A DNA stretch of 64,000 nt. Source: an uncultured cyanobacterium (GTDB taxonomy: Bacteria > Acidobacteriota > Vicinamibacteria > Vicinamibacterales > UBA2999). The position numbers were made by a program, and so were the translations under genes. Positions 1-54,046 of the stretch are shown in pieces. Each line of letters starts with the position of its first letter. Positions within the stretch are counted from its first letter, which is position 1. Location: the NCBI GenBank assembly GCA_963833135.1, contig CAWHWW010000014.1:132620-196619 (forward strand). The letters are read 5' to 3'. The notes under the pieces are model-generated. The model was not told the origin of the DNA. It did not search any database and worked only from the letters and a program-made list of their open reading frames with translations.

Positions 1-1106
1 AGCCCGAGGACGTGTCGCTCGACGACAAGATCCAGTTCCTGATGAAGATCAACGAGGCGGCGCTGAAGGTGCCGGGCGTGACGCGCGTCCAGTCGAACAT
101 GGCGTTCGACTACGAGTGGAAGTATCTCGCCACCTCCGAAGGCTCCTACATCGAGCAGGAAATCTGGCGGACCTCGCCGGGGTTCACGGTGACGGCGCGC
201 AAAGACGGCAAGACCAAGTCGCGCACGTTCTCGGTGGCGCCGAAGTCCGCCGGATACGAAGTGGTGCTCGACGCGAAGATGCTCGAAAACGCCGAGCGCA
301 TCGCCAGCGAGGCGGTCGAGCACTGCTCGGCGGCTCCGGTCGGTGTCGGCCTCAAGGACATCATCATGACGCCGGCGCACGCGATGCTGACGATCCACGA
401 GATCGTCGCGCATCCGACGGAGCTCGATCGCGTGGTCGGCTACGAGGCCAACTACGCCGGCACCAGCTTCGTCAAGGCGAACGACGTCGGCAAACTGATG
501 ATGGGCTCGAAGCTGTTCAACGTCACCTGCGATCGCACCCTGCCGGGCGGCATGTGCACGGTGGGCTACGACGACGATGGCGTGAAGTCGCAGCGCTGGC
601 CGATCATCCAGGAAGGCCGCCTCGTCGATCTGCAGACGAACCGCGAGACCGCGCACTACATCGGCCAGACGACGTCGAAGGGCTGCACCTTCGCCACCTC
701 GTGGCGCAACTACCCGTTCCTGCGGATGCCCAACGTCCACGTCGAACCGGGGCCGCCGGGATCGCCGACGCCGGAACAGATCATTGCCGACACCAAGGAC
801 GGCATCCTGATCGACGGCCGCGGCAGCTACTCGATCGATCAGCAGCGCTTCAACGGCCAGTTCGGCGGCGACGCCTTCTGGGAGATCAAGGACGGCAAGA
901 AGACGCGCATGCTGAGCGACGTCACCTACAACGCCATCACCACCGATTTCTGGCAGAATCTCGACGCGACCTCGGGCAGGGAATCGTGGGAGATGTTCGG
1001 GACGACCGGCGACGCGAAGGGGCAGCCGGTCCAGATCAATCACCCCTCGCACGGCTCGCCGTGGGTGCGCATCCGCCGTATCATGGTCGGCGCGGCCTAC
1101 AGCTAG
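1..1106 (+). CDS. tldD: TldD/PmbA family metalloprotease, TldD subunit (5'-truncated by window)
   Basis: HEIVAHPTELD (HExxxH) motif, GYDDDG, RMPNVHVEPG, C-terminal SHGSPWVRI; frame is open back to the window edge. Confidence 0.9.
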   Translation, partial: PEDVSLDDKIQFLMKINEAALKVPGVTRVQSNMAFDYEWKYLATSEGSYIEQEIWRTSPGFTVTARKDGKTKSRTFSVAPKSAGYEVVLDAKMLENAERIASEAVEHCSAAPVGVGLKDIIMTPAHAMLTIHEIVAHPTELDRVVGYEANYAGTSFVKANDVGKLMMGSKLFNVTCDRTLPGGMCTVGYDDDGVKSQRWPIIQEGRLVDLQTNRETAHYIGQTTSKGCTFATSWRNYPFLRMPNVHVEPGPPGSPTPEQIIADTKDGILIDGRGSYSIDQQRFNGQFGGDAFWEIKDGKKTRMLSDVTYNAITTDFWQNLDATSGRESWEMFGTTGDAKGQPVQINHPSHGSPWVRIRRIMVGAAYS

Positions 1107-6992: not shown

Positions 6993-8875
6993 ACCGACCG
7001 CAGGGCCACTGACCGTTCGTAAGTTTCGGGCGCCGTGCCGGCGCGAAACTCCAGGTGGCGGTCGTGGAGCAGGCTGTTGCCAATCAGCGACAGGTCCCAT
7101 CCGGGCAGCACGCGAAATCCGAAACGCGCGTCGAGCTCGTGGTATGCGTCGACAGCAGGCTGCGGCAGCTCGCCGACATAGCGATAGAACGCATCGATCT
7201 CGATGCGGTTCGTGGCGGTGACGTAAGAGCGCAGCTTGAAGATATTGCGCGGGTCGTTCGCTTCGGAGGCGCCATTGGTCGGGTCGGTGCTGCCCGGATC
7301 GAACGTGAGTTCCTTCCAGTGATACGCGTGCGATGCGTGCAGCTGCCAGCGCGTCAGGACCTGCAGGGACGCGGTGGTCTCGAGACCCCGAGCCAGCGCG
7401 TTCATCATGTTGGCGAGGGTAATCGGCCGGCCCGGGGCGAGCTCCTGAGAGCGTAAGTCGTCGTAGCGGTTGACGTAAGCTGCAAGATCAATTGACAGCC
7501 GCTCGTGGAACTGGCGGCGATAGCCGGCTTCGTAGGCGACGACCGCCTCGGATTCGAAATCCTCGGAACCCGTCAGCACCAGGTTCGGAGTGTTCGGAAT
7601 CCGGATCCGAAGGTCGGTATCGAAGCGCGTCGGCACCCTCACCGAGCGCGAAATGGCGCCCCACGCGCTCTGGTGCGTGCCGCTCCAGCGGCCGCGCACC
7701 GTCGGCTGGATGTCGAACCCGGTGAATTCATTACGCTCGAATTTCGATCCGATCGTCAGGAAGACGCCGCGCGCGATGGTGATTTCGTCCTGTGCGAATA
7801 CGTTGAAGCGGTGGGAGGCGCGCCGCCGGGGCTCGAAAAAGAACCCCGGCCCATCACCGAGGTCGTCGCCGTCGTAGTGTCTGTAGCCCGCTCCGAAGAC
7901 GACATTATGGCGCGTGTAGGTCCAGTGATGTTGGGCGTCGATGTCGGCGGTGTGGAGCGTGCCGCGATACTGATTGGGAACGCGCCGGTAGGTGCGATCG
8001 AAATATGCCTGGACGATGGTGGCGTGGTTCGCGCCCGCGACCGTCCAGCGTCCGAGCAGATTGCCACCCGACAGGTTGGCCTCGGTCGTGGCCGAAAGCC
8101 CGGTCGTCCCTGTATACATGTCGCCCTGGAGGGTCAGTTGACTTCGGCGCGACGAATCCGAGTCGATCCGGAAGCCCGCCTGGCCGAAGTCGAAGTCGTC
8201 CAGTGCATCCGCGCCGCTGAGGAGCTGATGCGAGTCCTCGAATCGGACTTTTGCATACGCTCGATACGCGCCTGCGCTGCCGAAGCGCCCGCCGTGTCGC
8301 ACCGTGTACGGTCCCAGGACGCTCGACCCCGCCGAGATGTTGACGAGCGTGCCCTTGGTCTCGGTGGCCCGTTTGCTGATCACGTTGATCACGCCGTTGA
8401 CCGCGTTCGCGCCCCAGATGCTGCCGCCCGGACCGCGGATGACCTCGATTCGGTCGATGTCGAGGAGCGACATGTCCTGCGTTTCCCAGAACACGCCCGC
8501 GAACACCGGCGAGTAGACCGTGCGTCCGTCGAGCAGGACCAGCATCTTGTTGGCCGTGCTGATCGCGAATCCGCGCGCCGTGATTCCATACTGCGGGCCG
8601 GAGATCTGCGAGACGTGCATGTGTCCGGCGAGGCGCAGCGCCTGCGCGAGGGTCTGGACACCCATGCGCCGCAGGTCCTCGCTGCTGATGACCGTCACCG
8701 CCGCGGCGACGTCGGCCAGCCGCTCGATTCGCCGCGACGCCGTCGTGACGTCGGTATCGACGAGTTCTTCGATCGAAAGCTGCTTAAGTTCGCCCAGTTT
8801 GCCTGAGCGGGGAGCTTGCGCGAATGCGCCGGTCGCCAGCGAGACGATGATGACAAGCGCAATCGCTATAAGCAT
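6980..8875 (-). CDS. TonB-dependent receptor
   Basis: Plug motifs LSIEEL..VTTASR, MLVLLDGR, IDRIEVIRGPG..WGANAVNGVINVI; C-terminal WRF. Confidence 0.92.
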   Translation of the reverse strand: MLIAIALVIIVSLATGAFAQAPRSGKLGELKQLSIEELVDTDVTTASRRIERLADVAAAVTVISSEDLRRMGVQTLAQALRLAGHMHVSQISGPQYGITARGFAISTANKMLVLLDGRTVYSPVFAGVFWETQDMSLLDIDRIEVIRGPGGSIWGANAVNGVINVISKRATETKGTLVNISAGSSVLGPYTVRHGGRFGSAGAYRAYAKVRFEDSHQLLSGADALDDFDFGQAGFRIDSDSSRRSQLTLQGDMYTGTTGLSATTEANLSGGNLLGRWTVAGANHATIVQAYFDRTYRRVPNQYRGTLHTADIDAQHHWTYTRHNVVFGAGYRHYDGDDLGDGPGFFFEPRRRASHRFNVFAQDEITIARGVFLTIGSKFERNEFTGFDIQPTVRGRWSGTHQSAWGAISRSVRVPTRFDTDLRIRIPNTPNLVLTGSEDFESEAVVAYEAGYRRQFHERLSIDLAAYVNRYDDLRSQELAPGRPITLANMMNALARGLETTASLQVLTRWQLHASHAYHWKELTFDPGSTDPTNGASEANDPRNIFKLRSYVTATNRIEIDAFYRYVGELPQPAVDAYHELDARFGFRVLPGWDLSLIGNSLLHDRHLEFRAGTAPETYERSVALRSVWRF

Positions 8876-8987
8876 GGGCCGCTCCCCTGAGCTTGCAAAA
8901 AAAAGACCGAAGAGAGCGTGCCAACGCTCAACTTCGGTCTCCCCAGAATAGCGGATCCGAGATCGTGGATCTCAGAACAGTGCTGGT

Positions 8988-9197
8988 TCAGTAGCGTGCG
9001 GCCGTATTGTTGAGCCAGTTGTCAACATCGCGAGCCGCCTGATCTTTGGCGATGCCGTACCGCTCCTGAACCTTGCCAACGAGCTGCTCGCGCTGGCCGT
9101 CCAGCTGGTCGATCTCGTCGTCGGTCAACTTGCCCCATTGTTCCTTGACGTGGCCTTTCAGCTGCGCCCACTTGCCCTTGAGAATGTCTTCGTTCAC
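8988..9197 (-). CDS. csbD: CsbD family stress protein
   Basis: LKGKWAQLKGHVKEQWGKLTDD...LVGKVQERYG; AAGGAG RBS. Confidence 0.92.
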   Translation of the reverse strand: MNEDILKGKWAQLKGHVKEQWGKLTDDEIDQLDGQREQLVGKVQERYGIAKDQAARDVDNWLNNTAARY

Positions 9198-9212
9198 ATC
9201 GATCTCCTTCGA

Positions 9213-9671
9213 TTACGGATTGGGGACTACCAGCAACTGGTTGTCGATGCGGTAACCCGGGGCTTCGGCAGCGGCAATCCGCGCCGATTCATCGCGCTGG
9301 GTCGCCGTCTTGACGGAACCCTTCAGCACGACGGTCTTCGTTTCGTGGAACGTGTCCACGTTGATGTGGCTCGCGTCCACCGTACGGTCGGCCATCAGGG
9401 CCGACTTCACGTCGATCGTTTCGACAGCGGCTTTCAGCGCGCCCGTTGCATCGCGCGCTGCGGCCCTGGTGTCCGCCGCGGCCTCGCGGCCCTCGGCGGC
9501 AGCTTTGTCCTGCGCGCGATCGGCCTTGTCTTCTGCCTTGTCAGCCGCCGTGGCGGCCTTATCGGCATTGATCTCCGCGTCCTTCTTGGCCCCGGCTGCG
9601 GTGTTCGAGCAGGCTGCCAATGAGAGGCCGCTCAGCAACGCAACAGCGAGATATCCGTTCTTCAATCTCAT
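9213..9671 (-). CDS. BON-domain (OsmY-like) lipoprotein
   Basis: Lipobox LAAC; VKSALMAD..INVDT..VVLKGSV..IDNQL; GGAGG RBS. Confidence 0.85.
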   Translation of the reverse strand: MRLKNGYLAVALLSGLSLAACSNTAAGAKKDAEINADKAATAADKAEDKADRAQDKAAAEGREAAADTRAAARDATGALKAAVETIDVKSALMADRTVDASHINVDTFHETKTVVLKGSVKTATQRDESARIAAAEAPGYRIDNQLLVVPNP

Positions 9672-9711
9672 CGGTCCTCCTACGGGCCTGACGCCCGACA
9701 ACGATGGAGAC

Positions 9712-9727
9712 TTCAAAAAGCCTGCCG
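9712..9727 (-). promoter_or_regulatory. Possible sigma-54 promoter of the BON-csbD operon
   Basis: Minus strand CGGCAGGCTTTTTGAA (GG-N10-GA, variant -12). Confidence 0.4.
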
Positions 9728-9735
9728 GGTCTTTA

Positions 9736-9816
9736 CGGGAATCGGACAGCCGGGAACCGGGAACCGGGCGCCAATTCGTGGAGTTTCTGTTCCCGTCTCG
9801 CGACTTCTCGGTCCCG
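9736..9816. repeat. 7-bp-period repeat with inverted arm
   Basis: cgggaat/cggacag/cgggaac/cgggaac/cggg ... ttcccg/tctcgcg/acttctcg/gtcccg. Confidence 0.6.
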
Positions 9817-9912
9817 AGGTCGTCTTGCGCCTGAGTTTCCCAACCCATCAGATTGGTGGGTAGCCGTCTCCCCATTCAGGGTAGAGCGCGGCCCAATAGC
9901 AGCTAAACTCTT

Positions 9913-9928
9913 GGGACTAGTCCTTGCA
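9913..9928 (+). promoter_or_regulatory. Possible sigma-54 promoter of the poly-HAMP kinase operon
   Basis: GGGACTAGTCCTTGCA: GG-N10-GC spacing with TTGCA; -24 element imperfect; ~40 nt before ATG. Confidence 0.4.
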
Positions 9929-9967
9929 TTGAAAGGCCGAGTTTCGAAACCGGAAGAGGTTCCCCCT

Positions 9968-12900
9968 ATGCACTTGGCCCGTACCAAGGCAGTGAAAAAC
10001 AAAGCGCGCGCTTCAACGACCGCTGTGGCCGGAACGGACACGCTGGACCATCGGGTGCTGTATGGCGTGCTCGCCGACTACCAACGCGGCAACTTCACGG
10101 TCAGGATGCCCGACGATCGCACGGGTCTCGCCGGAAAGATTTGTGACACGCTCAATTCGGCCATCGAGCGCAACGAGCGGCTCGTCAAAGAGCTCGAGCG
10201 CTTGAGCACCGTGGTCGGCAAGGCCGGCAACGTCAAGCAGCGCGCGCAGCTTCCATCAGCGGAAGGCGCGTGGAGCACCGCCGTCGAGTCGGTCAACACG
10301 CTCGTTTCCGACCTGGTTCAGCCGACCACCGAAGTCGCTCGCGTTATCGGCGCGGTCGCCAAGGGCGACCTCACGCAGACGATGTCGCTCGAGATCGAGG
10401 ATCGCCCGCTGACCGGCGAATTCCTGCGCACGGCCAAGGTCGTGAACACCATGGTGGCGCAGCTCGGCACGTTCTCGTCGGAAGTCACGCGCGTGGCCCG
10501 CGAAGTGGGCACCGAAGGCAAGCTCGGCGGCCAGGCGGTCGTGAAGGGTGTGGCCGGCACGTGGAAGGACCTCACCGACAACGTCAACCTGATGGCCGCG
10601 AACCTGACCTCGCAGGTCCGTAACATCGCGGAAGTGACCACGGCGGTCGCCAAGGGCGACCTCTCGAAGAAGGTCACTGTCGACGTGAAGGGCGAAATCC
10701 TCGAGCTGAAGGACACCGTCAACACGATGGTGGATCAGCTCTCGTCGTTCGCCGCGGAAGTCACGCGTGTCGCGAAGGAAGTCGGTACGGAAGGCAAGCT
10801 GGGCGGCCAGGCCGACGTGCGCGGCGTCGCCGGCACGTGGAAGGACCTCACCGACAACGTCAATGAGCTGGCCTCGAACCTGACGGTGCAGTTGCGCGAC
10901 GTGTCGAAGGTGGCGACCGCGATCGCGAGCGGCGACCTGAACCAGAAGATCACGGTCCAGGCGCAGGGCGAAATCCTGCAGATCAAGAACGTCATCAACA
11001 CGATGGTGGACCAGCTTGGTTCATTCGCATCGGAGGTGACGCGCGTCGCAAAGGAAGTGGGCACCGACGGCAAGCTCGGCGGCCAGGCTGACGTGCGCGG
11101 CGTCGCCGGCACGTGGAAGGACCTCACCGATAACGTCAACGCGATGGCCAGCAACCTGACGTCTCAGGTGCGCAACATCGCCGACGTCACGACCGCCGTC
11201 GCCAAGGGCGACCTTTCGAGGAAGGTCACGGTCGACGTCAAGGGCGAAATCCTCGAGCTCAAGAACACCGTCAACACGATGGTGGACCAGTTGTCGTCGT
11301 TCGCGTCGGAAGTCACCCGCGTCGCCAAGGAAGTCGGCACCGAAGGTCAGCTCGGCGGCCAGGCTGACGTGCGCGGCGTCGCCGGCACGTGGAAGGACCT
11401 CACCGATAATGTCAACGAGCTGGCCTCGAACCTGACGGTGCAGCTGCGCGACGTGTCGAAGGTCGCGACCGCGATCGCCAGCGGCGACCTCAACCAGAAG
11501 ATCACCGTGCAGGCGCGCGGCGAGATCCTGCAGATCAAGAACGTCATCAACACGATGGTGGACCAGCTGAGCGCGTTCGCGTCGGAAGTGACGCGCGTCG
11601 CGAAGGAAGTGGGCACCGAAGGCAAGCTCGGCGGCCAGGCCGAGGTCGGCGGCGTCGCCGGCACGTGGGAAGACCTCACCGACAACGTCAACGCGATGGC
11701 CAGCAACCTGACCAACCAGGTGCGCAACATCGCCGACGTGACGACCGCCGTCGCGCGCGGTGACCTCTCCAAGAAGATCACTGTCGATGCGCGGGGCGAA
11801 ATTCTCGAGCTCAAGAGCACCGTCAACACGATGGTCGATCAGCTGTCGTCGTTCGCATCGGAAGTGACGCGCGTCGCGAAGGAAGTCGGCACGGAAGGCA
11901 AGCTGGGCGGGCAGGCCGACGTGCGCGGCGTCGCCGGCACGTGGAAGGACCTCACCGACAACGTCAACGAGCTCGCCGGCAACCTGACGGTACAGCTGCG
12001 CGACGTCTCGAAGGTGGCGACCGCGATCGCCAGCGGCGACCTGAACCAGAAGATCACGGTGCAGGCGCAGGGCGAAATTCTGCAGATCAAGAATGTCATC
12101 AACACGATGACCGACCAGCTGAACGCGTTCGCGTCGGAAGTCACGCGCGTGGCGCGCGAAGTCGGCACGGAAGGCAAGCTCGGCGGCCAGGCGGACGTGC
12201 GCGGCGTTGCCGGGACGTGGCGAGACCTCACCGACTCGGTCAACTCGATGGCCGGCAACCTGACCGGCCAGGTCAGAAACATCGCGGACGTCACGACCGC
12301 GGTCGCGAAGGGCGACCTCTCGAAGAAGATCACGGTCGCGGTGCGCGGCGAGATTCTCGAGCTCAAGAACACCATCAACACGATGGTGGATCAGCTGAGC
12401 GCGTTCGCGTCGGAAGTGACGCGCGTGGCGCGCGAAGTCGGTACGCAAGGGCAGCTGGGCGGCCAGGCCGACGTGCCCGGTGTCGGCGGCACGTGGAAGG
12501 ACCTGACCGATAACGTCAACGCGATGGCCAGCAACCTGACCAACCAGGTGCGCAACATCGCCGACGTGACGACCGCCGTCGCCCGCGGCGACCTGTCGAA
12601 GAAGATCACCGTCGACGCCCGCGGCGAGATTCTCCAGCTGAAGGACACCGTCAACACCATGGTGGATCAGCTCAGCTCGTTCGCCGCCGAGGTGACGCGC
12701 GTCGCCAAGGAAGTCGGCACCGAAGGTCAGCTCGGCGGCCAGGCCGACGTGCGCGGCGTCGCCGGCACGTGGAAGGACCTGACCGACAACGTCAATCGGC
12801 TCGCCGCCAACCTCACCACGCAGGTGCGCGCGATCGCGGAAGTCGCGACCGCCGTGACGAAGGGCGACCTCTCGCAGTCGATCAACGTCGAGGCGGCCGG

Positions 12901-45603: not shown

Positions 45604-45687
45604 GGCCCCGTGGTGAAATTGGCAAACACTGCAGACTTAAAATCTGCTGCTCGTAAGGGCTTCTGGGTTCGATTCCCAGCGGGGCCA
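45604..45687 (+). tRNA. tRNA-Leu (anticodon TAA)
   Basis: Acceptor GGCCCCG/CGGGGCC-A; D arm GTGAAATTGGCAAACAC; anticodon arm GCAGA-CTTAAAA-TCTGC; long variable arm; GGTTCGATTCC; CCA not encoded. Confidence 0.95.
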
Positions 45688-45748
45688 CACTTTAACTGTT
45701 CGATCACCAAACGGGTCAGGTACAGCAAACGCTGAAGCAGCCTGAGCG

Positions 45749-47053: not shown

Positions 47054-47342
47054 CGTGCGGCTTTCAACTTCGGGGGTTAGCGGCTGAGGGCGCGCGAGAT
47101 CCGCATCGGAGGGAGCCGATCATAAATAGACGTTACCACGTGCGTTTGGGATACGACGCCGGGCGGCCTAACGCAGCCTCAATCGCGGTCGCTCGAACGC
47201 ATCCCATGTCCGCATGTCCGACACGACGATGCGATCGTCAGGTGAAACGCCGCTCACGATCTGAATCAACGACGGCGAGCATCCGGGGCGCCGGCGAGTG
47301 CCCGGCGCCCCTCAGATGATCGGCGACCTGCCCACCTGGAAT

Positions 47343-47846
47343 CTACTTGCAGTCGATGGTCTGCGGAATGCCCTGATGGATCCCGCCCTTCGGGTCCGAA
47401 GGATTGAACGTCAGTGTGATCGACTGATAGGAGAAGGAGACGCTTTCCATCGGTAACTCGCTGCTGCCAGAGGTCTGGCTCGACGTCACCCTCGCATTGT
47501 TAATGCGGATGTCGTACACCACACCCGAAAACACACCGGACTTGACGACCTCGATCCGGACTTCTGGAAACACCTGCCCCATAGCCGCCGCGGCCCAGAG
47601 CGCCGGACCTGCTTGGTCGAGATATTTCATGATCGACACGTCGGAACAGGTAACTGCCTTTTTCGTACCGCTCACCCCCTGTGACATCGACAGGACGTCG
47701 ATCCAGTCCTTGTGGTTTGCGTCGACGGAGCTGCCCGGAACGCCAGGGACAAACATGAACGTTCGATACTGTTGTGCGTGTGCCTCACCCGATCCGACCA
47801 CCACGAGCCCTGCCGCGAGAGCGCCGATCACGAATAACCGTCTCAT
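47343..47846 (-). CDS. hcp: Hcp (T6SS tube-fold) family protein with N-terminal signal peptide
   Basis: VPGSSVDANHKDWIDVLS, MKYLDQAGPAL, IRINNARVTS, PMESVSFSYQSI; preceded by MRRLFVIGALAAGLVVVGSGEAHA. Confidence 0.75.
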   Translation of the reverse strand: MRRLFVIGALAAGLVVVGSGEAHAQQYRTFMFVPGVPGSSVDANHKDWIDVLSMSQGVSGTKKAVTCSDVSIMKYLDQAGPALWAAAAMGQVFPEVRIEVVKSGVFSGVVYDIRINNARVTSSQTSGSSELPMESVSFSYQSITLTFNPSDPKGGIHQGIPQTIDCK

Positions 47847-47867
47847 CCGGACCCCCTTTGCTGACCT

Positions 47868-47894
47868 TACTGTTGAGTTGAAGCTCAACAGTAC
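47868..47894. promoter_or_regulatory. Palindrome immediately upstream of the hcp RBS
   Basis: tactgttgag-ttgaag-ctcaacagta perfect 10-bp arms. Confidence 0.5.
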
Positions 47895-48064
47895 AGAAAG
47901 CGAGGTGGTTTGGCAATGATGGTCCGGAAGTTTGACATGCCCTGGACTGCAGTGTTCAGGCGCATACTTACGACGCTCTCGCGGCAGACGTCGCATCCGC
48001 CGACGTCGGCCGGCCGAGCGCAGCAGCGATACGTCGGCTCGCAGTCACATAGCACCAAGGCGAG

Positions 48065-49903
48065 ATGGCCAACGTCTTTCTCAGTTATGCGCGCGAGGAC
48101 AGTGCCAAAGCCGCGATCATCGCCAAGGCTTTGTCGGGACGAGACTGGACTGTCTGGTGGGATCGCACGATTCCCCCCGGCAAGACCTTTGACGACGTCA
48201 TCGAGGATGCACTCGACCGTGCGGCGTGTGTCGTCGTGCTGTGGTCGAGGACTTCGGTCTTGTCCCATTGGGTGCGCGCCGAAGCTGCGGAAGGGGCCCG
48301 CCGCGGCATCCTCGTGCCGGCGCTCCTCGAGGCCGCGAAGATTCCGCTGGAGTTCAGGCGCGTCCAGGCTGCAGACCTCACGTCGTGGCACGGCGACCCT
48401 GCGGACCCGGAGTTCGAACGATTCGTTCAGTCGATCACGGCGCTGATACAACCCGCGGCGGTCGCGCCGGCAGGTATCGCGTCGCCACGGATTGCCGAGC
48501 CCTCTTTGGACCTTTTCGAAAGCTCGTCTCAGCGGGATGTGACGGAACAGCAACCCGAACGTCGCCGCTCACACGCTCTCGGCTGGGCCACCCTCGGTAT
48601 CATCGCTATGCTCGTGCTCGGCGTAGCCTGGTGGTTGACGAGCCGTCAGGCAGTTGCTCCTCCCGTGAGTGAAAAGCCTCTCGAGCACCCACGCACGCTG
48701 CCGCCCGGGATAACCTTAGACCCCCGTGTTGACGTGCCATTGATCGTTGGCCTGCAAGTTGACGACGCGCGCACGCGACTCGACGGAATCGGGTTGCGCG
48801 TCGGCGGCGTGCGAGAGGCGAACGAAAACGGCCCAGCTGGAACGATCACGGCACAGCGTCCCGGCGCCGGCGAGCGTGTCAGCCCCGGCGCGGCGGTCGA
48901 TCTGGTCGTCGCGCGGTCCTCCGGCGCGAAGCCCGCGCCCACGTCACGTGCGCGGTCAGACCCGAAGACCGAGAATCGCGTCGCCCAGGGAATCGAGGTG
49001 CCCGCCCTCACGGGACTCTCGATCGAAGAAGCGCGAGATCGCACGTCGCGTCGTGGCCTCACGGTCGGCAGTGTCACGACGCGGGCAAGCGACAGGATGG
49101 CGGCCAACACCGTTCTCTCACAGGAGCCGGCCGCCGGCACGCGGCAACCGTCGGGCACTCCGATCGCGCTGGTGATTGCGGAGGTATCCACAGCACCAGC
49201 CGACAGCAATCGTGCGCGAGGGGCACGCTCTCCCGCTACGAACTCGATTACAAATATCCGCGCAACCGATAGGTCACCATCGGAGGTCACTTTCGAGGCA
49301 GATGTCTTCTACGATGGAGCGAGCGGCACCGACCGGATCTACCTTACGGCTACGGCGATGAACGGAAAAACCCAGATGCGCGGTGCGACTGCGCACTTGT
49401 CATCGCCACTTCGAGTCGGCGCCGGTCACGCAAGTGTGACTCTGAGGATGTGGGGCACGGTTGCCGACGCCACGAGCACCGATGTCAACCTCTGTATCAG
49501 AGCGACGAGACCGGGCCCACGGACAGAGCCCGTCCATTGTCAGACGTTTCCGCTCGCGAAAAAATGGGTGTTGCCCATGAACACTGTGACGAACTTTCGT
49601 TCCCGCGACGCGGCGCCATCGGAACTTGTTGTCAATGTCTCTATCTGGTACGACGGCACCCTTGGCACGTCACGCATCCTGTTGCAGGCGTGTCCTCGAG
49701 GCGCGAACGCGCGGGGAACGCGGGTCGGCGGTATTCGCTGCGGGCAGGCCCCTTTGCAAGTGGGACCCAACAACGTGGAGCTCACGATGACGATGGACAG
49801 TGAGCCTCAGATGCTGGACAGCTCGACTGTCGAAGTATGTCTGGTTGGTCCTCGCTACTTCGAATGTCAGGTCTTTCCGCACCAGAAGCGCTGGTCTCGC
49901 TGA
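48065..49903 (+). CDS. TIR domain-TM-2xPASTA-2x Cys-containing repeat protein
   Basis: VFLSYARED, WWDR, SHWVRAEA (TIR_2); TM LGWATLGIIAMLVLGVAWW; VPLIVGL..AQRP and VPALTGL..SQEP PASTA repeats; two ~110-aa C-terminal repeats. Confidence 0.85.
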   Translation: MANVFLSYAREDSAKAAIIAKALSGRDWTVWWDRTIPPGKTFDDVIEDALDRAACVVVLWSRTSVLSHWVRAEAAEGARRGILVPALLEAAKIPLEFRRVQAADLTSWHGDPADPEFERFVQSITALIQPAAVAPAGIASPRIAEPSLDLFESSSQRDVTEQQPERRRSHALGWATLGIIAMLVLGVAWWLTSRQAVAPPVSEKPLEHPRTLPPGITLDPRVDVPLIVGLQVDDARTRLDGIGLRVGGVREANENGPAGTITAQRPGAGERVSPGAAVDLVVARSSGAKPAPTSRARSDPKTENRVAQGIEVPALTGLSIEEARDRTSRRGLTVGSVTTRASDRMAANTVLSQEPAAGTRQPSGTPIALVIAEVSTAPADSNRARGARSPATNSITNIRATDRSPSEVTFEADVFYDGASGTDRIYLTATAMNGKTQMRGATAHLSSPLRVGAGHASVTLRMWGTVADATSTDVNLCIRATRPGPRTEPVHCQTFPLAKKWVLPMNTVTNFRSRDAAPSELVVNVSIWYDGTLGTSRILLQACPRGANARGTRVGGIRCGQAPLQVGPNNVELTMTMDSEPQMLDSSTVEVCLVGPRYFECQVFPHQKRWSR

Positions 49904-49920
49904 ATAGCCTTGAGGACATG

Positions 49921-50727
49921 CTACCGCCGGAACACCGCGACCACGTAGCCGTCGCGAAGCGTACTCATGAAATAGCGGATTGCAAATGCCGGGATACCGA
50001 TGTTCGCGTGCTCAGCCGCATGCAACGGCGCCGAGGCGCTATCCACCATCGTGTAGCCGCGATCGGTGAAGAGCCGCTCCGGAGCGTCCTCCATGTCGGT
50101 AAAGGTCGCTCCCATGCCGACGATCTTCTCGTGAATGTCACGGCCGTACTTGTCGAAGAAGCGCTTACGCATCAAATCGCAGTAGACGGTGTGATGTGCG
50201 AAGCGTTCCGAAATCGTCTTGAGCAACGACACGCGCTGATCGCGGGTGAGATACATCAGCACGCCTTCGATGACGATGTGCACGCTCGACGGTGCCGTGA
50301 TCATGGCGAGCTTGTCTGCTAGCGGCTCCCGGGCGAATTCAATGGTCATGCGCCGTAACGGGTTGGGCGCGGTCGAGGCCGGCAATCGGCTTTCCTTGTA
50401 GGTCAGAATCTCGGGCTCATCGAGCTCGAACCAATGGCCGCCTCGAAGACGAAAAGCGCGCGTATCGAAGCCGGCGCCAATGAACACGATCGTAGCCTGG
50501 GGATCGGACCGAAGGGCGCGCCGCAGATGTTCGTCGATGATCGCATGCCGCGCAGCGTTGCTGCCGTTTGGCTTCGTCAACGACTTGAATTCCTCCCACA
50601 CCGCCTTCGCATCGTCATTCATGAACTTCTGCGCGAAGGTGTCGCCCAGGATCGGTTTCGCCTGCGCGGCGTCCGCGGCCCGCACGGCAAGCGTGTAGTA
50701 GGCGGTGCGCGAGATTGGATTAGCCAT
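49921..50727 (-). CDS. Class I SAM-dependent methyltransferase (LCM/O-methyltransferase family)
   Basis: TAYYTLAVRA, IGAGFDTRAFRL, FELD, IEGVLMYL. Confidence 0.88.
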   Translation of the reverse strand: MANPISRTAYYTLAVRAADAAQAKPILGDTFAQKFMNDDAKAVWEEFKSLTKPNGSNAARHAIIDEHLRRALRSDPQATIVFIGAGFDTRAFRLRGGHWFELDEPEILTYKESRLPASTAPNPLRRMTIEFAREPLADKLAMITAPSSVHIVIEGVLMYLTRDQRVSLLKTISERFAHHTVYCDLMRKRFFDKYGRDIHEKIVGMGATFTDMEDAPERLFTDRGYTMVDSASAPLHAAEHANIGIPAFAIRYFMSTLRDGYVVAVFRR

Positions 50728-50765
50728 TCGCGCGGCATCATAAATCGGTTAGGCTCTGTCGCGTC

Positions 50766-51962
50766 ATGATCACCAGACGCGACTTTCTCAAGACCACCTC
50801 GACCTCACTAGCAGCGGCAGGGCCGCTCGCGACGCTGGCAACGGCCGCGCCGTCCGAAGCGCGATCCGCCGAGATCTGGATTCAGCGCGCGGTGAAGCCT
50901 GTCGTCATCTCTGACTATTCGGGATGGGAATTCAAGAATGGCGGCCGGGAAAATGCGGTCGAACGCGCGTTTCGCCTGATCGCGGAAGGCAAGGACGTCC
51001 TCGACGCATTGATCGCAGGCGTCAACATTCCCGAGCTCGATCCGCTGGAAACCGGCATCGGCTACGGTGCGCTCCCGAACGCAGACGGCATCGTCGAGCT
51101 CGACTCGTCGTGCATGCACGGGCCCAGGAAGCGAGCGGGCGCGGTTGCGGCCATTCAGGGTGTCCGCACGCCGTCCCTGGTTGCGAAGGCGGTGATGGAT
51201 CATACCGACCACCACCTTCTTGTCGGCGACGGCGCGAAGCAGTTTGCGCGCGCGATGGGCTTCACCGTGGAAGACGACCTCAACACGGAGAACTCGCGGA
51301 AGCTGTGGCGTGAGTGGAAGCGCCGCATCGATCCCGAGCATTGGCTCGATCCGGATGGCGACGCACGCAAGCCCATTCCGAAGCACCAGAAGGATCCGGG
51401 CGACGCGGCAATGCTCGAGTCACGCGGCTTCGAGGCGGGGCTTTCCATGGTGCGCGACGGTCTGATCAGGGAAGGGAGCTTCTGGGGCACGATCAATTGT
51501 GATGGCATCGGCCCGAACGGCGACATTTGCGGCGTCACCACTACGAGCGGGCTCGCCTGGAAGATTCCGGGTCGGACTGGCGATTCGCCGATTCTCGGCG
51601 CAGGGCTGTACGTCGACAACGAGATCGGCGCCGCGGGTTCGACCGGCCGCGGTGAAGCTAACCTCTACAACCTCTCGTCTTTCCTGATCGTGGAGTCGAT
51701 GCGGCGCGGAATGTCGCCGAAGGACGCCGGGATGGAGGCGTTGGCGCGCATTCGGGCGAACACGATCGAGAAGCGTCTGCTGAACGGCAGGGGCAATCCG
51801 AATTTCAACATTCGCTTCTTCGTGCTCAACAAGAAGGGCGAGTACGCCGGCGTCTCGATGTATCGCGCGGGAGAGACGCAGTATGCCGTGTGCACCGAGA
51901 ACGGCGCCCGCACGCTGGAGCTCGAACCGCTGCTGCCTGGAAGTCCTCAAGACACGGCCTGA
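50766..51962 (+). CDS. N4-(beta-N-acetylglucosaminyl)-L-asparaginase (Ntn hydrolase), Tat-exported
   Basis: TRRDFLK Tat motif; GYGALPN; GTINC; TTTSGLAWKIPGRTGDSP. Confidence 0.88.
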   Translation: MITRRDFLKTTSTSLAAAGPLATLATAAPSEARSAEIWIQRAVKPVVISDYSGWEFKNGGRENAVERAFRLIAEGKDVLDALIAGVNIPELDPLETGIGYGALPNADGIVELDSSCMHGPRKRAGAVAAIQGVRTPSLVAKAVMDHTDHHLLVGDGAKQFARAMGFTVEDDLNTENSRKLWREWKRRIDPEHWLDPDGDARKPIPKHQKDPGDAAMLESRGFEAGLSMVRDGLIREGSFWGTINCDGIGPNGDICGVTTTSGLAWKIPGRTGDSPILGAGLYVDNEIGAAGSTGRGEANLYNLSSFLIVESMRRGMSPKDAGMEALARIRANTIEKRLLNGRGNPNFNIRFFVLNKKGEYAGVSMYRAGETQYAVCTENGARTLELEPLLPGSPQDTA

Positions 51963-51987
51963 GGGTTCCTTTAAGATATGGGCGCTC

Positions 51988-53343
51988 GTGGCTGTTCCCC
52001 CGGCATCGCGCTCCGCTCGTGGCCGTACCGCGTTCGCGCTGTTGTTCGTGGCGCTGTTGGTTCCTTTCTCGTATTTCAATCACAGCGACGGCTGGAACCA
52101 GGGTGTTCGCATTGCGGAGCTCCACGCCATCGTCATCAAAGGCACGCTGCGCATCGACGACTATCTGGCCTACACTGGCGACCGCGCACTGATTGACGGT
52201 CACTACTACAGCGAGAAGGCTCCGGCGATGGTGTTGTTCGCGTTGCCGTCGTTTGCGCTCACCGTCGCGGTCCAGAAACTGTTCGGAGTCGATCCGGACT
52301 CGCCGTCGGCAGGGCGGGTGTCGCAGTGGATTGCCACAGCGGCCTCGGTCGGACTCCTGGCGGCGCTTGGCGGCGTGGCTTTTTTTGCCTTGCTCAGGAC
52401 CCGCTTCGATGCCTTGACCTCCGTGCTGGCGACCTTTGGCCTGTTTCTCGGTTCCATCACGTGGCCGTACGCGACGTCGCTATTCGCGCATGCCGGCACG
52501 ATCGGCCTGATGGCGATTGCGCTGTGGGGGACGCTCGGTCCTGGGTCGCCCCGCCGGGACGTGTTGGCCGGCCTGGCGGCAGGGTTCGCTGTGGCTTCGG
52601 AGTATCCGGCAATCTTCCCGGGCGTGGTGCTCGGCCTGCGCCTTGGCATGCTGGATGTTCGTCGCATGTGGCGATATGGATTGGCGACGATGCCGGCGGC
52701 CGCGTTGATCCTGGCCAACAACTATGCGATCTCGGGATCGGCGTTCGAGTTGAGTTATGGATCGAATCCGCTGTTTCCGGAACTGGCGGCGACGACCAGC
52801 TACGGTTTCGGCATGCCCGAGGTGGCCGCGATTAGCGGACTGTTATGGGGAGAGTATCGAGGGCTCTTTTTCTGGAGCCCTGCGCTGCTCATGGCGCTGC
52901 CGGGTTCCTACTACATGTTCAGAAATGATCGCGGTGTCGCGATCATGACGATGATCGGCTGTCTGCTGGTCCTGCTGGAGTCCGCTGCCTTCTACATGTG
53001 GTTCGGCGGCAACGCGATAGGCCCGCGTTATCTGGCGCCTGTATTACCTCTGGTCGGGCTCGCTGCGGCATACGGCATCCAGCGATGGCCGGAACCCGGC
53101 CTGGTCCTCGCCCTGATCTCCATCGGCCTGATGCTCGGCGTGACGGCGATTGCGATCGATCCGCCCGGTGATGTGCTGACGCCTCTTCAGTCGTACTATC
53201 TGGTTCGCTTCCACGACAGTCGCTTCGCCGACAACCTGGGGACGCTCCTCGGCGCGCCGCTGTGGCTCAGCCTGATCGTGCCGCTCGTCCTGCCGATTGT
53301 CGCGGCCTGGAAATGGCTGAAGGAGCCCGTGGCCGGTGTCTGA
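51988..53343 (+). CDS. Polytopic membrane protein, probable GT-C glycosyltransferase
   Basis: HYYSEKAP, ASEYP, GLFFWSP, GPRYLAP; many TMs; coupled to a GT2 gene; start uncertain. Confidence 0.65.
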   Translation: MAVPPASRSARGRTAFALLFVALLVPFSYFNHSDGWNQGVRIAELHAIVIKGTLRIDDYLAYTGDRALIDGHYYSEKAPAMVLFALPSFALTVAVQKLFGVDPDSPSAGRVSQWIATAASVGLLAALGGVAFFALLRTRFDALTSVLATFGLFLGSITWPYATSLFAHAGTIGLMAIALWGTLGPGSPRRDVLAGLAAGFAVASEYPAIFPGVVLGLRLGMLDVRRMWRYGLATMPAAALILANNYAISGSAFELSYGSNPLFPELAATTSYGFGMPEVAAISGLLWGEYRGLFFWSPALLMALPGSYYMFRNDRGVAIMTMIGCLLVLLESAAFYMWFGGNAIGPRYLAPVLPLVGLAAAYGIQRWPEPGLVLALISIGLMLGVTAIAIDPPGDVLTPLQSYYLVRFHDSRFADNLGTLLGAPLWLSLIVPLVLPIVAAWKWLKEPVAGV

Positions 53344-54046
53344 CTCCCGCCGCCTCAGCGTGATCATGCCCGTCTACAACGAGGAGGGCGCGATCGTTGC
53401 CGCCGTCGACGAGGTGAAGCAGTTCATCCTGGAGTTCGTTCCAGAATCGGAACTCGTCGTGGTCGACGATGGCTCGAGAGACGATACGGGCCGTCTGCTG
53501 GACGCCGCCGCGTCCGGCGATCCGCGAATTCGTGTCATCCATCAACCAAACGGCGGGCACGGCGCCGCGGTGCTCACTGGCTTGAAGGCCTCGCACGGCG
53601 AATACATTTTCCTCATCGACAGCGATCGGCAGATCCCGCTCGACTGTTTCAAGACCGCCTGGACAGAGGTCATGGCGGGCCGTGACGCGGTGTTCGGCGT
53701 GCGCCGCCGGCGCTACGACCCCGTGTTGCGGCTCTATCTCTCCAGGCTGATACGGCACTCGGTCAACGTGTTGTTCCGCGTCAATCTGAGCGATGCGAAT
53801 GCGCCCTTCAAACTGTTCAGGCGCGGCATCTGGGCCGAAGCGCGCGACTGCGTGCCGGACGGCACGCTGGCGCCGTCGATGTTTCTCGCCATCGCGGCCA
53901 AGTCGCGCGGCTACAACATTCTCGAGATCGACGTGACTCACAAGGAGCGCGATACCGGTGAGGTCACGCTGCGGAAGTTCAAGCTGCTGAAATTCTGCGC
54001 CAGGGGACTGGGGCAGATGCTCAGGCTGATACGCCGTGTCCGCTGA
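53336..54046 (+). CDS. Glycosyltransferase family 2 (polyprenol-phosphate glycosyltransferase-like)
   Basis: LSVIMPVYNEE, VVDDGSRD, NGGHG, IDSDRQ. Confidence 0.9.
   Translation: MSDSRRLSVIMPVYNEEGAIVAAVDEVKQFILEFVPESELVVVDDGSRDDTGRLLDAAASGDPRIRVIHQPNGGHGAAVLTGLKASHGEYIFLIDSDRQIPLDCFKTAWTEVMAGRDAVFGVRRRRYDPVLRLYLSRLIRHSVNVLFRVNLSDANAPFKLFRRGIWAEARDCVPDGTLAPSMFLAIAAKSRGYNILEIDVTHKERDTGEVTLRKFKLLKFCARGLGQMLRLIRRVR

Follow-up and report, generated by a model that had tools for sequence, protein, structure and literature searches.

A TIR domain on a PknB-type PASTA receptor layout: a predicted membrane receptor in an Acidobacteriota-like genome

Gene and domain layout

The window analysed here, a 64,000-nucleotide (nt) stretch of contig CAWHWW010000014.1 (assembly GCA_963833135.1, positions 132,620 to 196,619 of the forward strand), carries at positions 48065-49903 (+) an intact, unbroken open reading frame (ORF) of 612 codons, the product of which joins a TIR domain, one transmembrane (TM) helix and two PASTA repeats to a tandem C-terminal domain. 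The start codon is backed by 12 of 14 aligned homologues, which begin at the same 'MA(N/D)(V/I)F'. The parts of this TIR-PASTA gene, in window coordinates and with the evidence in brackets, are as follows:

48065..49903, + strand: whole gene, 612 codons plus stop (ORF; homologues share the start Met)
48074..48448, + strand: TIR domain, predicted to be cytoplasmic (Pfam TIR_2 at residues 4-113; the modelled fold reaches the last helix, residues 115-128)
48281..48283, + strand: Glu73 codon, within the motif S-H-W-V-R-A-E; putative catalytic residue (invariant; aligns with the Glu of AbTir 'WTNYE')
48449..48574, + strand: poorly conserved linker, residues 129-170, predicted to be cytoplasmic (alignments of homologues)
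48575..48643, + strand: single TM helix, residues 171-193 (Kyte-Doolittle 2.0; aligns with the TM helix of Stk1/PknB)
48728..48913, + strand: PASTA repeat 1, residues 222-283, predicted to be periplasmic (Pfam and six-frame search)
48992..49180, + strand: PASTA repeat 2, residues 310-372, predicted to be periplasmic (Pfam and six-frame search)
49238..49573, + strand: first copy of the C-terminal domain, residues ~392-503, an Ig/FN3-like beta-sandwich that has a Cys pair close to its end (self-alignment, model)
49574..49900, + strand: C-terminal domain copy 2, residues ~504-612, ending in C-x8-C-Q-x-F-P-x-x-K-x-W (self-alignment, model)

Pfam placed TIR_2 (PF13676) at residues 4-113 (E 3.6e-21; 76.3 bits against a cut-off of 28) and PASTA (PF03793) on two stretches (E 4e-25; 88 bits against 23.2). 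A preliminary description of the locus, made from the letters alone, had proposed an N-terminal TIR domain with a Glu in 'WVRAEA', a single TM helix at ~48578-48640, two PASTA repeats and a tandem unassigned domain, and all of these elements were recovered: 'WVRAEA' corresponds to residues 69-74 within the TIR_2 match, the helix (nt ~48575-48643) is the one segment of strong hydrophobicity, both PASTA repeats fall within 1-2 bases of the positions claimed when the genome is searched in six frames, and the two C-terminal copies, which lack a Pfam match, align with each other at 36/110 identities (E 5e-17). The sole strongly hydrophobic 19-mer spans residues 171-189 (Kyte-Doolittle 2.0; runner-up 1.34) and is directly preceded, on the TIR side, by the basic cluster 'ERRRSH'; the protein has no N-terminal signal peptide. 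Together with a PknB-like layout, the basic cluster and the lack of a signal peptide support the N-in/C-out topology that had likewise been proposed. The protein would thus span the inner membrane once in type-II orientation, its TIR domain being cytoplasmic and its PASTA repeats and beta-sandwiches periplasmic. The C-terminal domains have conserved Cys pairs, as would suit an oxidising compartment and hence the predicted location of the ectodomain. Given the TonB_C and Hcp-family proteins of the genome and the kinship of an asparaginase encoded in the window (see below), the host is probably a diderm acidobacterium, so that 'outside' would here mean the periplasm.

Within the linker, residues 145-152 (nt ~48497-48520) keep a (F/L)-D-x-(F/L) patch, the D149 of which is invariant in 30 sequences, and R168, inside the basic cluster just ahead of the helix, is invariant as well. 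The patch may represent a short regulatory or docking motif.

Kinship of the TIR, PASTA and C-terminal domains

An AlphaFold2 model of the TIR domain (27 sequences; mean pLDDT 87.5) adopts the flavodoxin-like alpha/beta fold of TIR domains. Its best structural match was the TIR domain of Hydra TRR-2 (4w8g; Z 16.3, rmsd 2.3 A, 122 aligned (VIA)), alongside SPARTA TIR-APAZ (Z about 15), SARM1 (Z 14.9, rmsd 2.1, 119 aligned) and AbTir (Z 13.2, rmsd 2.6, 122 aligned), while Foldseek ranked AbTir first (7uxu_A, E 2.5e-6). A TIR-only profile, built from 24 sequences cut from the window and related loci, retrieved from the PDB oyster TIR-STING (6e-9), the 7uxr TIR (2e-8), AbTir and 'NAD(+) hydrolase AbTIR' (3e-8 and 7e-8) and PdTIR (2e-7), followed by SARM1 (6e-4) and TLR1, TLR2 and TLR6 (about 1e-3). 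Sequence identity to the enzymatic TIRs AbTir, SARM1, SPARTA TIR-APAZ and TIR-STING amounts to only 17-25%.

The catalytic Glu of SARM1 is E642, to which E73 would presumably be equivalent. In the profile alignment, the W69-V-x-x-E73 of the family overlies the W-T-N-Y-E of AbTir, whose Glu is E208 by the numbering offset of the structure (chain range 134..267; chain index 78 = residue 208). Mutation E208A abolishes the NADase activity of AbTir, as stated in a passage of 10.1101/2023.05.19.541320. Glu73 is invariant in each of three alignments of relatives (14/14, 27/27 and 24/24), and the TIR domain is the best-conserved part of the protein, with 58-95% identity between relatives and the window protein as compared to 27-82% for the PASTA repeats and 15-62% for the linker. 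The domain thus bears the hallmark residue of enzymatic TIRs, and cleavage of NAD+ is predicted. A complex prediction with two TIR copies (residues 1-131) returned a score of 0.00, which is evidence neither way. To the enzymatic TIRs AbTir, SARM1, SPARTA TIR-APAZ and TIR-STING the domain is therefore alike in fold (Z 13-16) and in the Glu aligned with AbTir E208; those proteins, however, have cytoplasmic sensors (ARM, Argonaute/APAZ, STING or a coiled coil), whereas the presumed sensor here lies across the membrane.

The TM-PASTA part of the protein has a counterpart in receptor kinases. Positions 318-496 of the 563 in the NCBIfam Stk1/PknB model NF033483, i.e. its juxtamembrane, TM and PASTA parts, align with residues 156-373 (E 8e-23; 81 bits, far under the cut-off of 450), which argues that the TM-PASTA part is oriented as in receptors with a cytoplasmic N-terminal catalytic domain. 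The Pfam scan found no Pkinase match, and hence no Hanks-type kinase domain, in the TIR-PASTA protein. Searched with the family profile, the PASTA ectodomains of the S. aureus and M. tuberculosis kinases (PDB 3py9, 3m9g and 2kui) matched at E 1e-19 to 1e-21. Residues 196-385, used as a query by themselves, retrieved 46 proteins, which outside the TIR-PASTA family comprised PASTA-only proteins, 13 proteins with PASTA and CarboxypepD_reg, and eight Stk1-type kinases (25-35% identity). The phrase 'TIR in place of the usual kinase' of the preliminary description is therefore a fair one, as the juxtamembrane-TM-PASTA part aligns with the same part of Stk1/PknB and the kinase domain is absent. As read from the sequence, the protein has the layout and orientation of a PknB-type receptor in which the kinase is swapped for a TIR domain, without being a member of the kinase family. 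With PknB, PrkC and StkP it shares a single N-in membrane pass, a catalytic domain placed N-terminally in the cytoplasm and PASTA repeats in tandem at the C-terminal side; unlike them, it has a TIR instead of a kinase, carries two Ig/FN3-like domains after the PASTA repeats, and comes from a diderm, Acidobacteriota-like host rather than from Firmicutes or Actinobacteria. A PADLOC match to the defence profile PD-T4-6 spans only positions 302-489 of 547, that is, the PASTA part, and we rejected it as evidence of a defence function. In Streptococcus thermophilus, the PD-T4-6 gene is present in all genomes analysed and encodes a Ser/Thr-kinase-like N-terminal domain followed by 3py9-like modules, according to a section of PMC11514479.

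Neither C-terminal copy matched any Pfam model at E <= 1. An exhaustive HMMER search with residues 392-612 against 1.84 billion cluster representatives retrieved 42 proteins at E <= 0.001, 12 of them at <= 1e-10. Forty of the 42 were scanned against Pfam, P0005 and P0006 being left out as already known, and their partner domains were PASTA (6), TIR_2 (3), PEGA (2) and one each of Pkinase, Trypsin_2 and BON; most of the proteins are small and have an N-terminal hydrophobic segment. Their shared motif reads N-x-I-x-x-F-R-A...Y-x-G...G...V-x-V-C...C-x-x-F-P-x-x-K-x-W, and within its Cys pair C592 is invariant and C601 nearly so. A model of the C-terminal pair (pLDDT 87.9) consists of two all-beta sandwiches, which best match the Ig-like domains of GH2 glycosidases (Z 9-10; top Z 10.0, rmsd 2.6, 94 aligned) and FN3 domains (Z ~8), in a comparison that barely sampled copy 1. 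Since these matches are of the generic Ig/FN3-like type, the fold implies no particular function. A search of the ESM Atlas with the pair (best score 0.84, no common Pfam domain) yielded a lead only. By its model, the domain probably represents an unnamed, rare (42 representatives) family of periplasmic Ig/FN3-like domains.

The label of a 'Toll-like-receptor-like architecture', which the preliminary description had attached to the protein, did not hold. Toll-like receptors have N-terminal leucine-rich repeats (LRRs), a TM helix and a C-terminal TIR domain; here the order is TIR-TM-ectodomain (type II), i.e. the reverse, and no LRR family was among the Pfam matches, so the likeness to Toll is one of logic only. 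What the two have in common is an extracytoplasmic recognition module, one TM helix, a cytoplasmic TIR domain and a repertoire in which one type of TIR goes with varied ectodomains. The N-terminal position of the TIR domain, the lack of LRRs and a profile closer to NADase TIRs set the present protein apart, making this an analogy and not a membership.

Distribution of the family and genomic setting

Among 8000 scored candidates, the family search yielded 214 clusters at E <= 0.001. The combination of TIR and PASTA, for which the preliminary description had suggested an architecture search, recurs: 38 of the best 120 of these clusters, the window's own included, contain TIR_2 plus PASTA, all of them from metagenomes or metagenome-assembled genomes (MAGs), with soil and sediment among the sources. 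The number of PASTA repeats in the relatives ranges from one to seven, and the C-terminal domain is absent, single or present twice. The remainder of the best 120 combine a similar TIR (40-65% identity) with FGE-sulfatase, LamG, PKD, WD40 or unnamed regions. Many of these non-PASTA relatives (P0041-P0099) share another unnamed C-terminal ectodomain with the consensus '...LxWxDxALRYSGTxSW...NCPxPGECYP'.

In GTDB, sampled at one genome per species, 169 stretches encode the TIR cassette; six of the 80 retained run into PASTA, two from Acidobacteriota/Vicinamibacterales and four from MAGs of Burkholderiales/Betaproteobacteria. Other hosts of the cassette are Binatia, Gammaproteobacteria, Desulfobacterales and Chitinophagaceae. 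Among 80 loci from metagenomes, about 20 run into PASTA. A single-protein query of genome contigs found no relative; an alignment-based scan recovered relatives. No full-length relative occurred in 60 related genomes (36 of the same genus; 0/59 without genome G035), where matches covered either the TIR or the PASTA part, and no record in plasmid and phage collections spanned >=80% of the protein (0/5 and 0/2 matching records). In a search of sequencing runs, the best DNA run was a soil metagenome holding 0.47 of the words; the shares of other runs were small, and no RNA run was listed.

A quick maximum-likelihood tree (IQ-TREE) of 119 TIR domains, based on few columns, grouped 33 of the 38 proteins with PASTA into a single 34-row clade (SH-aLRT 95). 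The PASTA label changes five times on this tree, with at least three changes forced by well-supported branches, which argues that ectodomains have been exchanged on the cassette. The genome that harbours the window (G000) itself has 16 TIR_2 matches above the cut-off, 15 of which have a Glu at the column of E73. In at least five of these paralogues the TIR domain comes first, with a hydrophobic helix behind it and a further module after that: PDZ (337 aa), WD40 propellers (1000 aa), TPR (409 aa), an Fn3-like region (476 aa) and TonB_C (697 aa; helix at residues 411-429). Further TIR_2 proteins of the genome are a DUF4062-TIR and an FHA-kinase-TIR. Contig positions noted for this set of paralogues are C1:308288, C18:54369, C15:23277, C18:328423 and C14:63867 (loci L101-L106). 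Elsewhere on its contigs, a 124-aa TIR_2 ORF (C16:146799-147173) lies 2 kb upstream of a 445-aa protein (C16:149163-150500) that combines one PASTA repeat with a TM helix and a coiled coil; the two may be a split or degraded TIR-PASTA relative.

At its own locus, the TIR-PASTA gene sits between an Hcp-like gene upstream and a methyltransferase gene downstream, both on the opposite strand, so that it is probably transcribed alone. A scan for promoters and terminators across 47300-50800 gave counts at the shuffle expectation. The flanks are syntenic in a genome of the same genus (G011), with an enoyl-CoA hydratase gene, tRNA-Leu(taa), a TIGR00027-type methyltransferase gene and glycosyltransferase genes. 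The tRNA-Leu(taa) gene at 45604-45688 (+) forms the edge of a ~4.2-kb variable segment reaching to ~49920, in which no integrase was seen. Here this segment encodes a 434-aa multi-TM protein without a Pfam match, the Hcp-like protein and the TIR-PASTA protein; in G011 it encodes an aminotransferase, a DNA-alkylation-repair protein and one protein of no assigned function. Because the segment between tRNA and methyltransferase differs between the two genomes, the TIR-PASTA gene appears to be accessory.

A comparison of 18 loci, which fall into 10 synteny groups, showed no family of neighbouring genes to be common to three or more groups, which suggests that one protein contains both sensor and output. 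The genes next to it in the window, including the Hcp-like gene, were not found beside TIR-PASTA genes in any of 23 other loci. Only a second TIR-PASTA gene recurs as a neighbour: such tandem pairs are present in 10 of the 23 loci (L022, L126, L129, L130, L132, L134, L136, L127, L128 and L133), several of which are near-copies. At L022, for instance, a 335-aa protein with one PASTA repeat (8001-9008) is followed by a 393-aa protein with two (9079-10260). Such pairs may encode paired or hetero-oligomeric receptors.

Two neighbouring genes were noted in their own right. The Hcp-family gene at 47343-47996 (-) matches PF05638 at E 3.7e-23 and has its probable true start at 47846; from this internal Met the protein begins 'MRRLFVIGALAAGLVVVGSGEAHA', an apparent Sec signal peptide. 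Canonical Hcp is exported by the T6SS (type VI secretion system) without a signal peptide. The genome has three Hcp-family genes. At 50766-51962 (+) lies a glycosylasparaginase gene (Asparaginase_2, E 1e-51) with a TAT-like N-terminus, named N4-(beta-N-acetylglucosaminyl)-L-asparaginase in databases and >=90% identical to a Vicinamibacterales MAG protein; it adjoins GT-C-like and GT2 glycosyltransferase genes (51883-54046).

A candidate outside-in receptor and its alternatives

Our reading of the protein starts from its domains and their order, the TIR fold, the conserved Glu, the homology of the TM-PASTA part to that of kinase receptors and the stand-alone setting of the gene; what we infer beyond that is the topology, the ligand, an activation through oligomerisation, the enzymatic product and the biological role. 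We give an even chance to the protein being an outside-in receptor, the TIR oligomerisation and NAD+ cleavage of which would be governed by a cue from the periplasm that is probably related to peptidoglycan. The ectodomain would bind peptidoglycan or a peptidoglycan-derived ligand (the preliminary description had pointed to muropeptides or lipid II), and either this binding or its loss upon envelope damage would alter the clustering of the receptor in the membrane. Clustering would bring TIR domains together in the way active sites assemble in known enzymatic TIRs, and Glu73 would then support NAD+ cleavage, resulting in NAD+ depletion or in an ADP-ribose-derived nucleotide. PASTA domains of PknB/PrkC-type kinases are reported to bind peptidoglycan or peptidoglycan-derived ligands, and as the module here is homologous to that of these wall-sensing kinases, a peptidoglycan-related cue would be the most likely input. 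In SARM1, SPARTA and TIR-STING, activation proceeds via a fused or bound sensor that drives TIR oligomerisation; given that linked sensors thus oligomerise the known enzymatic TIRs, control of clustering from the periplasm would be the simplest mechanism. The lack of a partner gene fits a self-contained sensor-effector.

Several points weigh against this reading. NAD+ cleavage, ligand and topology are in this case all predictions, and some TIR domains that retain the Glu are scaffolds only or depend on a partner. The PASTA repeats are only 31-39% identical to kinase PASTAs, and ligand binding is not universal among PASTA domains. The same TIR cassette is joined via a helix to PDZ, WD40, TPR, TonB_C and Fn3-like modules in the same genome and to FGE-sulfatase, LamG and PKD elsewhere, and a cassette found on so many unrelated ectodomains means that the ectodomain could be an anchor rather than a sensor. 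Moreover, the gene sits among envelope glycan and housekeeping genes, and PADLOC returned no match in three window neighbours and one weak match in 10 neighbours at three other loci. The context lends no support to a defence role such as the detection of attack by phage, predators or T6SS, which the preliminary description had raised as a possibility.

That the ectodomain merely positions the protein, a membrane- and wall-anchored TIR enzyme whose trigger is cytoplasmic (e.g. a phage protein, as is the case for soluble TIR defence proteins encoded by a single gene), is a rather unlikely alternative. It would account for a near-constant cassette whose ectodomains are swapped among unrelated adhesion or interaction modules, for the changes of the PASTA label on the TIR tree, and for the occurrence of the C-terminal domain in small anchored proteins and together with the envelope-associated PEGA and BON domains. 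A mere anchor, however, would not need two to seven PASTA repeats with 0-2 extra domains kept across the family, and neither the homology of the TM-PASTA part to the module of true receptor kinases nor the lack of a defence context speaks for it. The preferred outside-in receptor also competes with a non-catalytic adaptor, in the manner of TLR/MyD88, which would recruit one of the 15 other TIR_2 proteins or another partner and in which the Glu would be structural. The 16 TIR_2 genes of the genome, the FHA-kinase-TIR and DUF4062-TIR among them, could supply such partners, the tandem TIR-PASTA pairs in 10 of 23 related loci hint at hetero-association, and the best match by Z (Hydra TRR-2) is a scaffold-type receptor TIR. 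We consider an adaptor distinctly improbable, though, as the nearest solved TIRs by profile are enzymes (AbTIR and the 7uxr TIR at E ~1e-8 versus TLRs at ~1e-3) and the Glu is invariant in the family and kept at the aligned column by 15 of the 16 TIR_2 proteins of the genome.

Slightly less probable again is a Thoeris-like generator of a cyclic ADPR-type signal for an effector encoded elsewhere in the genome. Thoeris ThsB and the other TIR defence systems (types I-XI) resemble the present protein in being bacterial TIRs with a conserved Glu, and weak profile matches exist (NF058526 at E 6e-10, 38.5 bits against a cut-off of 220; PADLOC ThsB at 2e-5). All Thoeris model scores are nonetheless far under their cut-offs (for the Pfam model ThsB_TIR, 16.6 against 21.2), and no effector-like gene adjoins the TIR-PASTA gene in the window or at 17 other loci. 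Unlike the genes of those systems, the gene has no adjacent effector and lies in no defence island, its neighbours encoding an Hcp-like protein, a methyltransferase and a membrane protein. Effector searches of the genome returned no match for SLATT_1 (PF18181), for which the control also matched nowhere, one weak match for SIR2_2, and three matches for LDcluster4 (PF18306), a family that matches in 13 of 14 control genomes as well. A reversed topology, with the TIR domain outside and the PASTA repeats inside, or a secreted protein, is barely credible in light of the missing signal peptide, the position of the basic cluster ahead of the helix on its TIR side, the extracytoplasmic nature of PASTA and Cys-pair beta-sandwich modules, the PknB-like layout and the cytoplasmic location of the substrate NAD+.

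Should the protein indeed be an outside-in receptor, its role could be that of an envelope-damage alarm or abortive response, or that of ordinary physiological signalling. We regard the two as about equally probable, because the absent defence context and the many paralogues fit ordinary signalling at least as well as abortive defence.

A full-text literature search, covering main texts where supplementary tables may list it, found no paper describing a TIR-TM-PASTA polypeptide. Source databases label relatives as 'TIR domain-containing protein/PASTA domain-containing protein' or 'beta-lactam-binding protein with PASTA domain'; the pairing of TIR and PASTA is thus already annotated, but not interpreted. 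To our knowledge, the experimentally characterised bacterial TIR enzymes are all triggered from inside the cell. The words 'PASTA' and 'periplasm' do not occur in the main text, the part considered here, of a 2025 survey of TIR signalling (10.64898/2025.12.03.692087). A section of Kaur et al. 2020 lists TIR and TM-preceded PASTA, PEGA, OmpA and Sel1 as alternative modules of vWA-MoxR systems (PMC7159879). As outlined there, these iSTAND/VMAP ternary conflict systems are similar in having TIR among their effector domains and PASTA preceded by a TM helix; in contrast to the present protein, however, the domains in question are attached to the vWA components of MoxR-vWA systems made up of several genes. 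The surroundings of the TIR-PASTA gene contain no vWA, MoxR or STAND gene. What appears to be new, then, is a TIR of predicted enzymatic type on the chassis of a PknB-type PASTA receptor.

If our reading is true, TIR/NAD+ signalling would extend to the surveillance of the envelope, and PASTA receptors would have a second output chemistry beside Ser/Thr phosphorylation. The analysis also defines a rare and unnamed, predicted periplasmic beta-sandwich domain. As the TIR cassette is shared with many ectodomains, a result obtained here would probably also apply to a wide class of receptors found mostly in soil. Tentatively, and with more doubt than confidence, we suggest that bacteria possess a large, hitherto undescribed class of type-II outside-in TIR receptors, of which the protein would be the member that reads peptidoglycan. 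Such a class might rest on a single conserved TIR cassette in the cytoplasm, with 50-60% identity among Acidobacteriota, Binatia, Burkholderiales, Gammaproteobacteria, Desulfobacterales and Chitinophagaceae, although this, too, we hold to be possible rather than probable. Its ectodomains (PASTA, PDZ, TPR, WD40, TonB_C, FGE-sulfatase and LamG) could conceivably be exchangeable via one helix, a proposal of similarly tentative standing. If true, the class would answer cues from the envelope by depleting NAD+ or by making second messengers derived from NAD, and would constitute an independently evolved bacterial counterpart of Toll-like receptor logic with a multi-gene repertoire, comprising 16 TIR_2 genes in the present genome.

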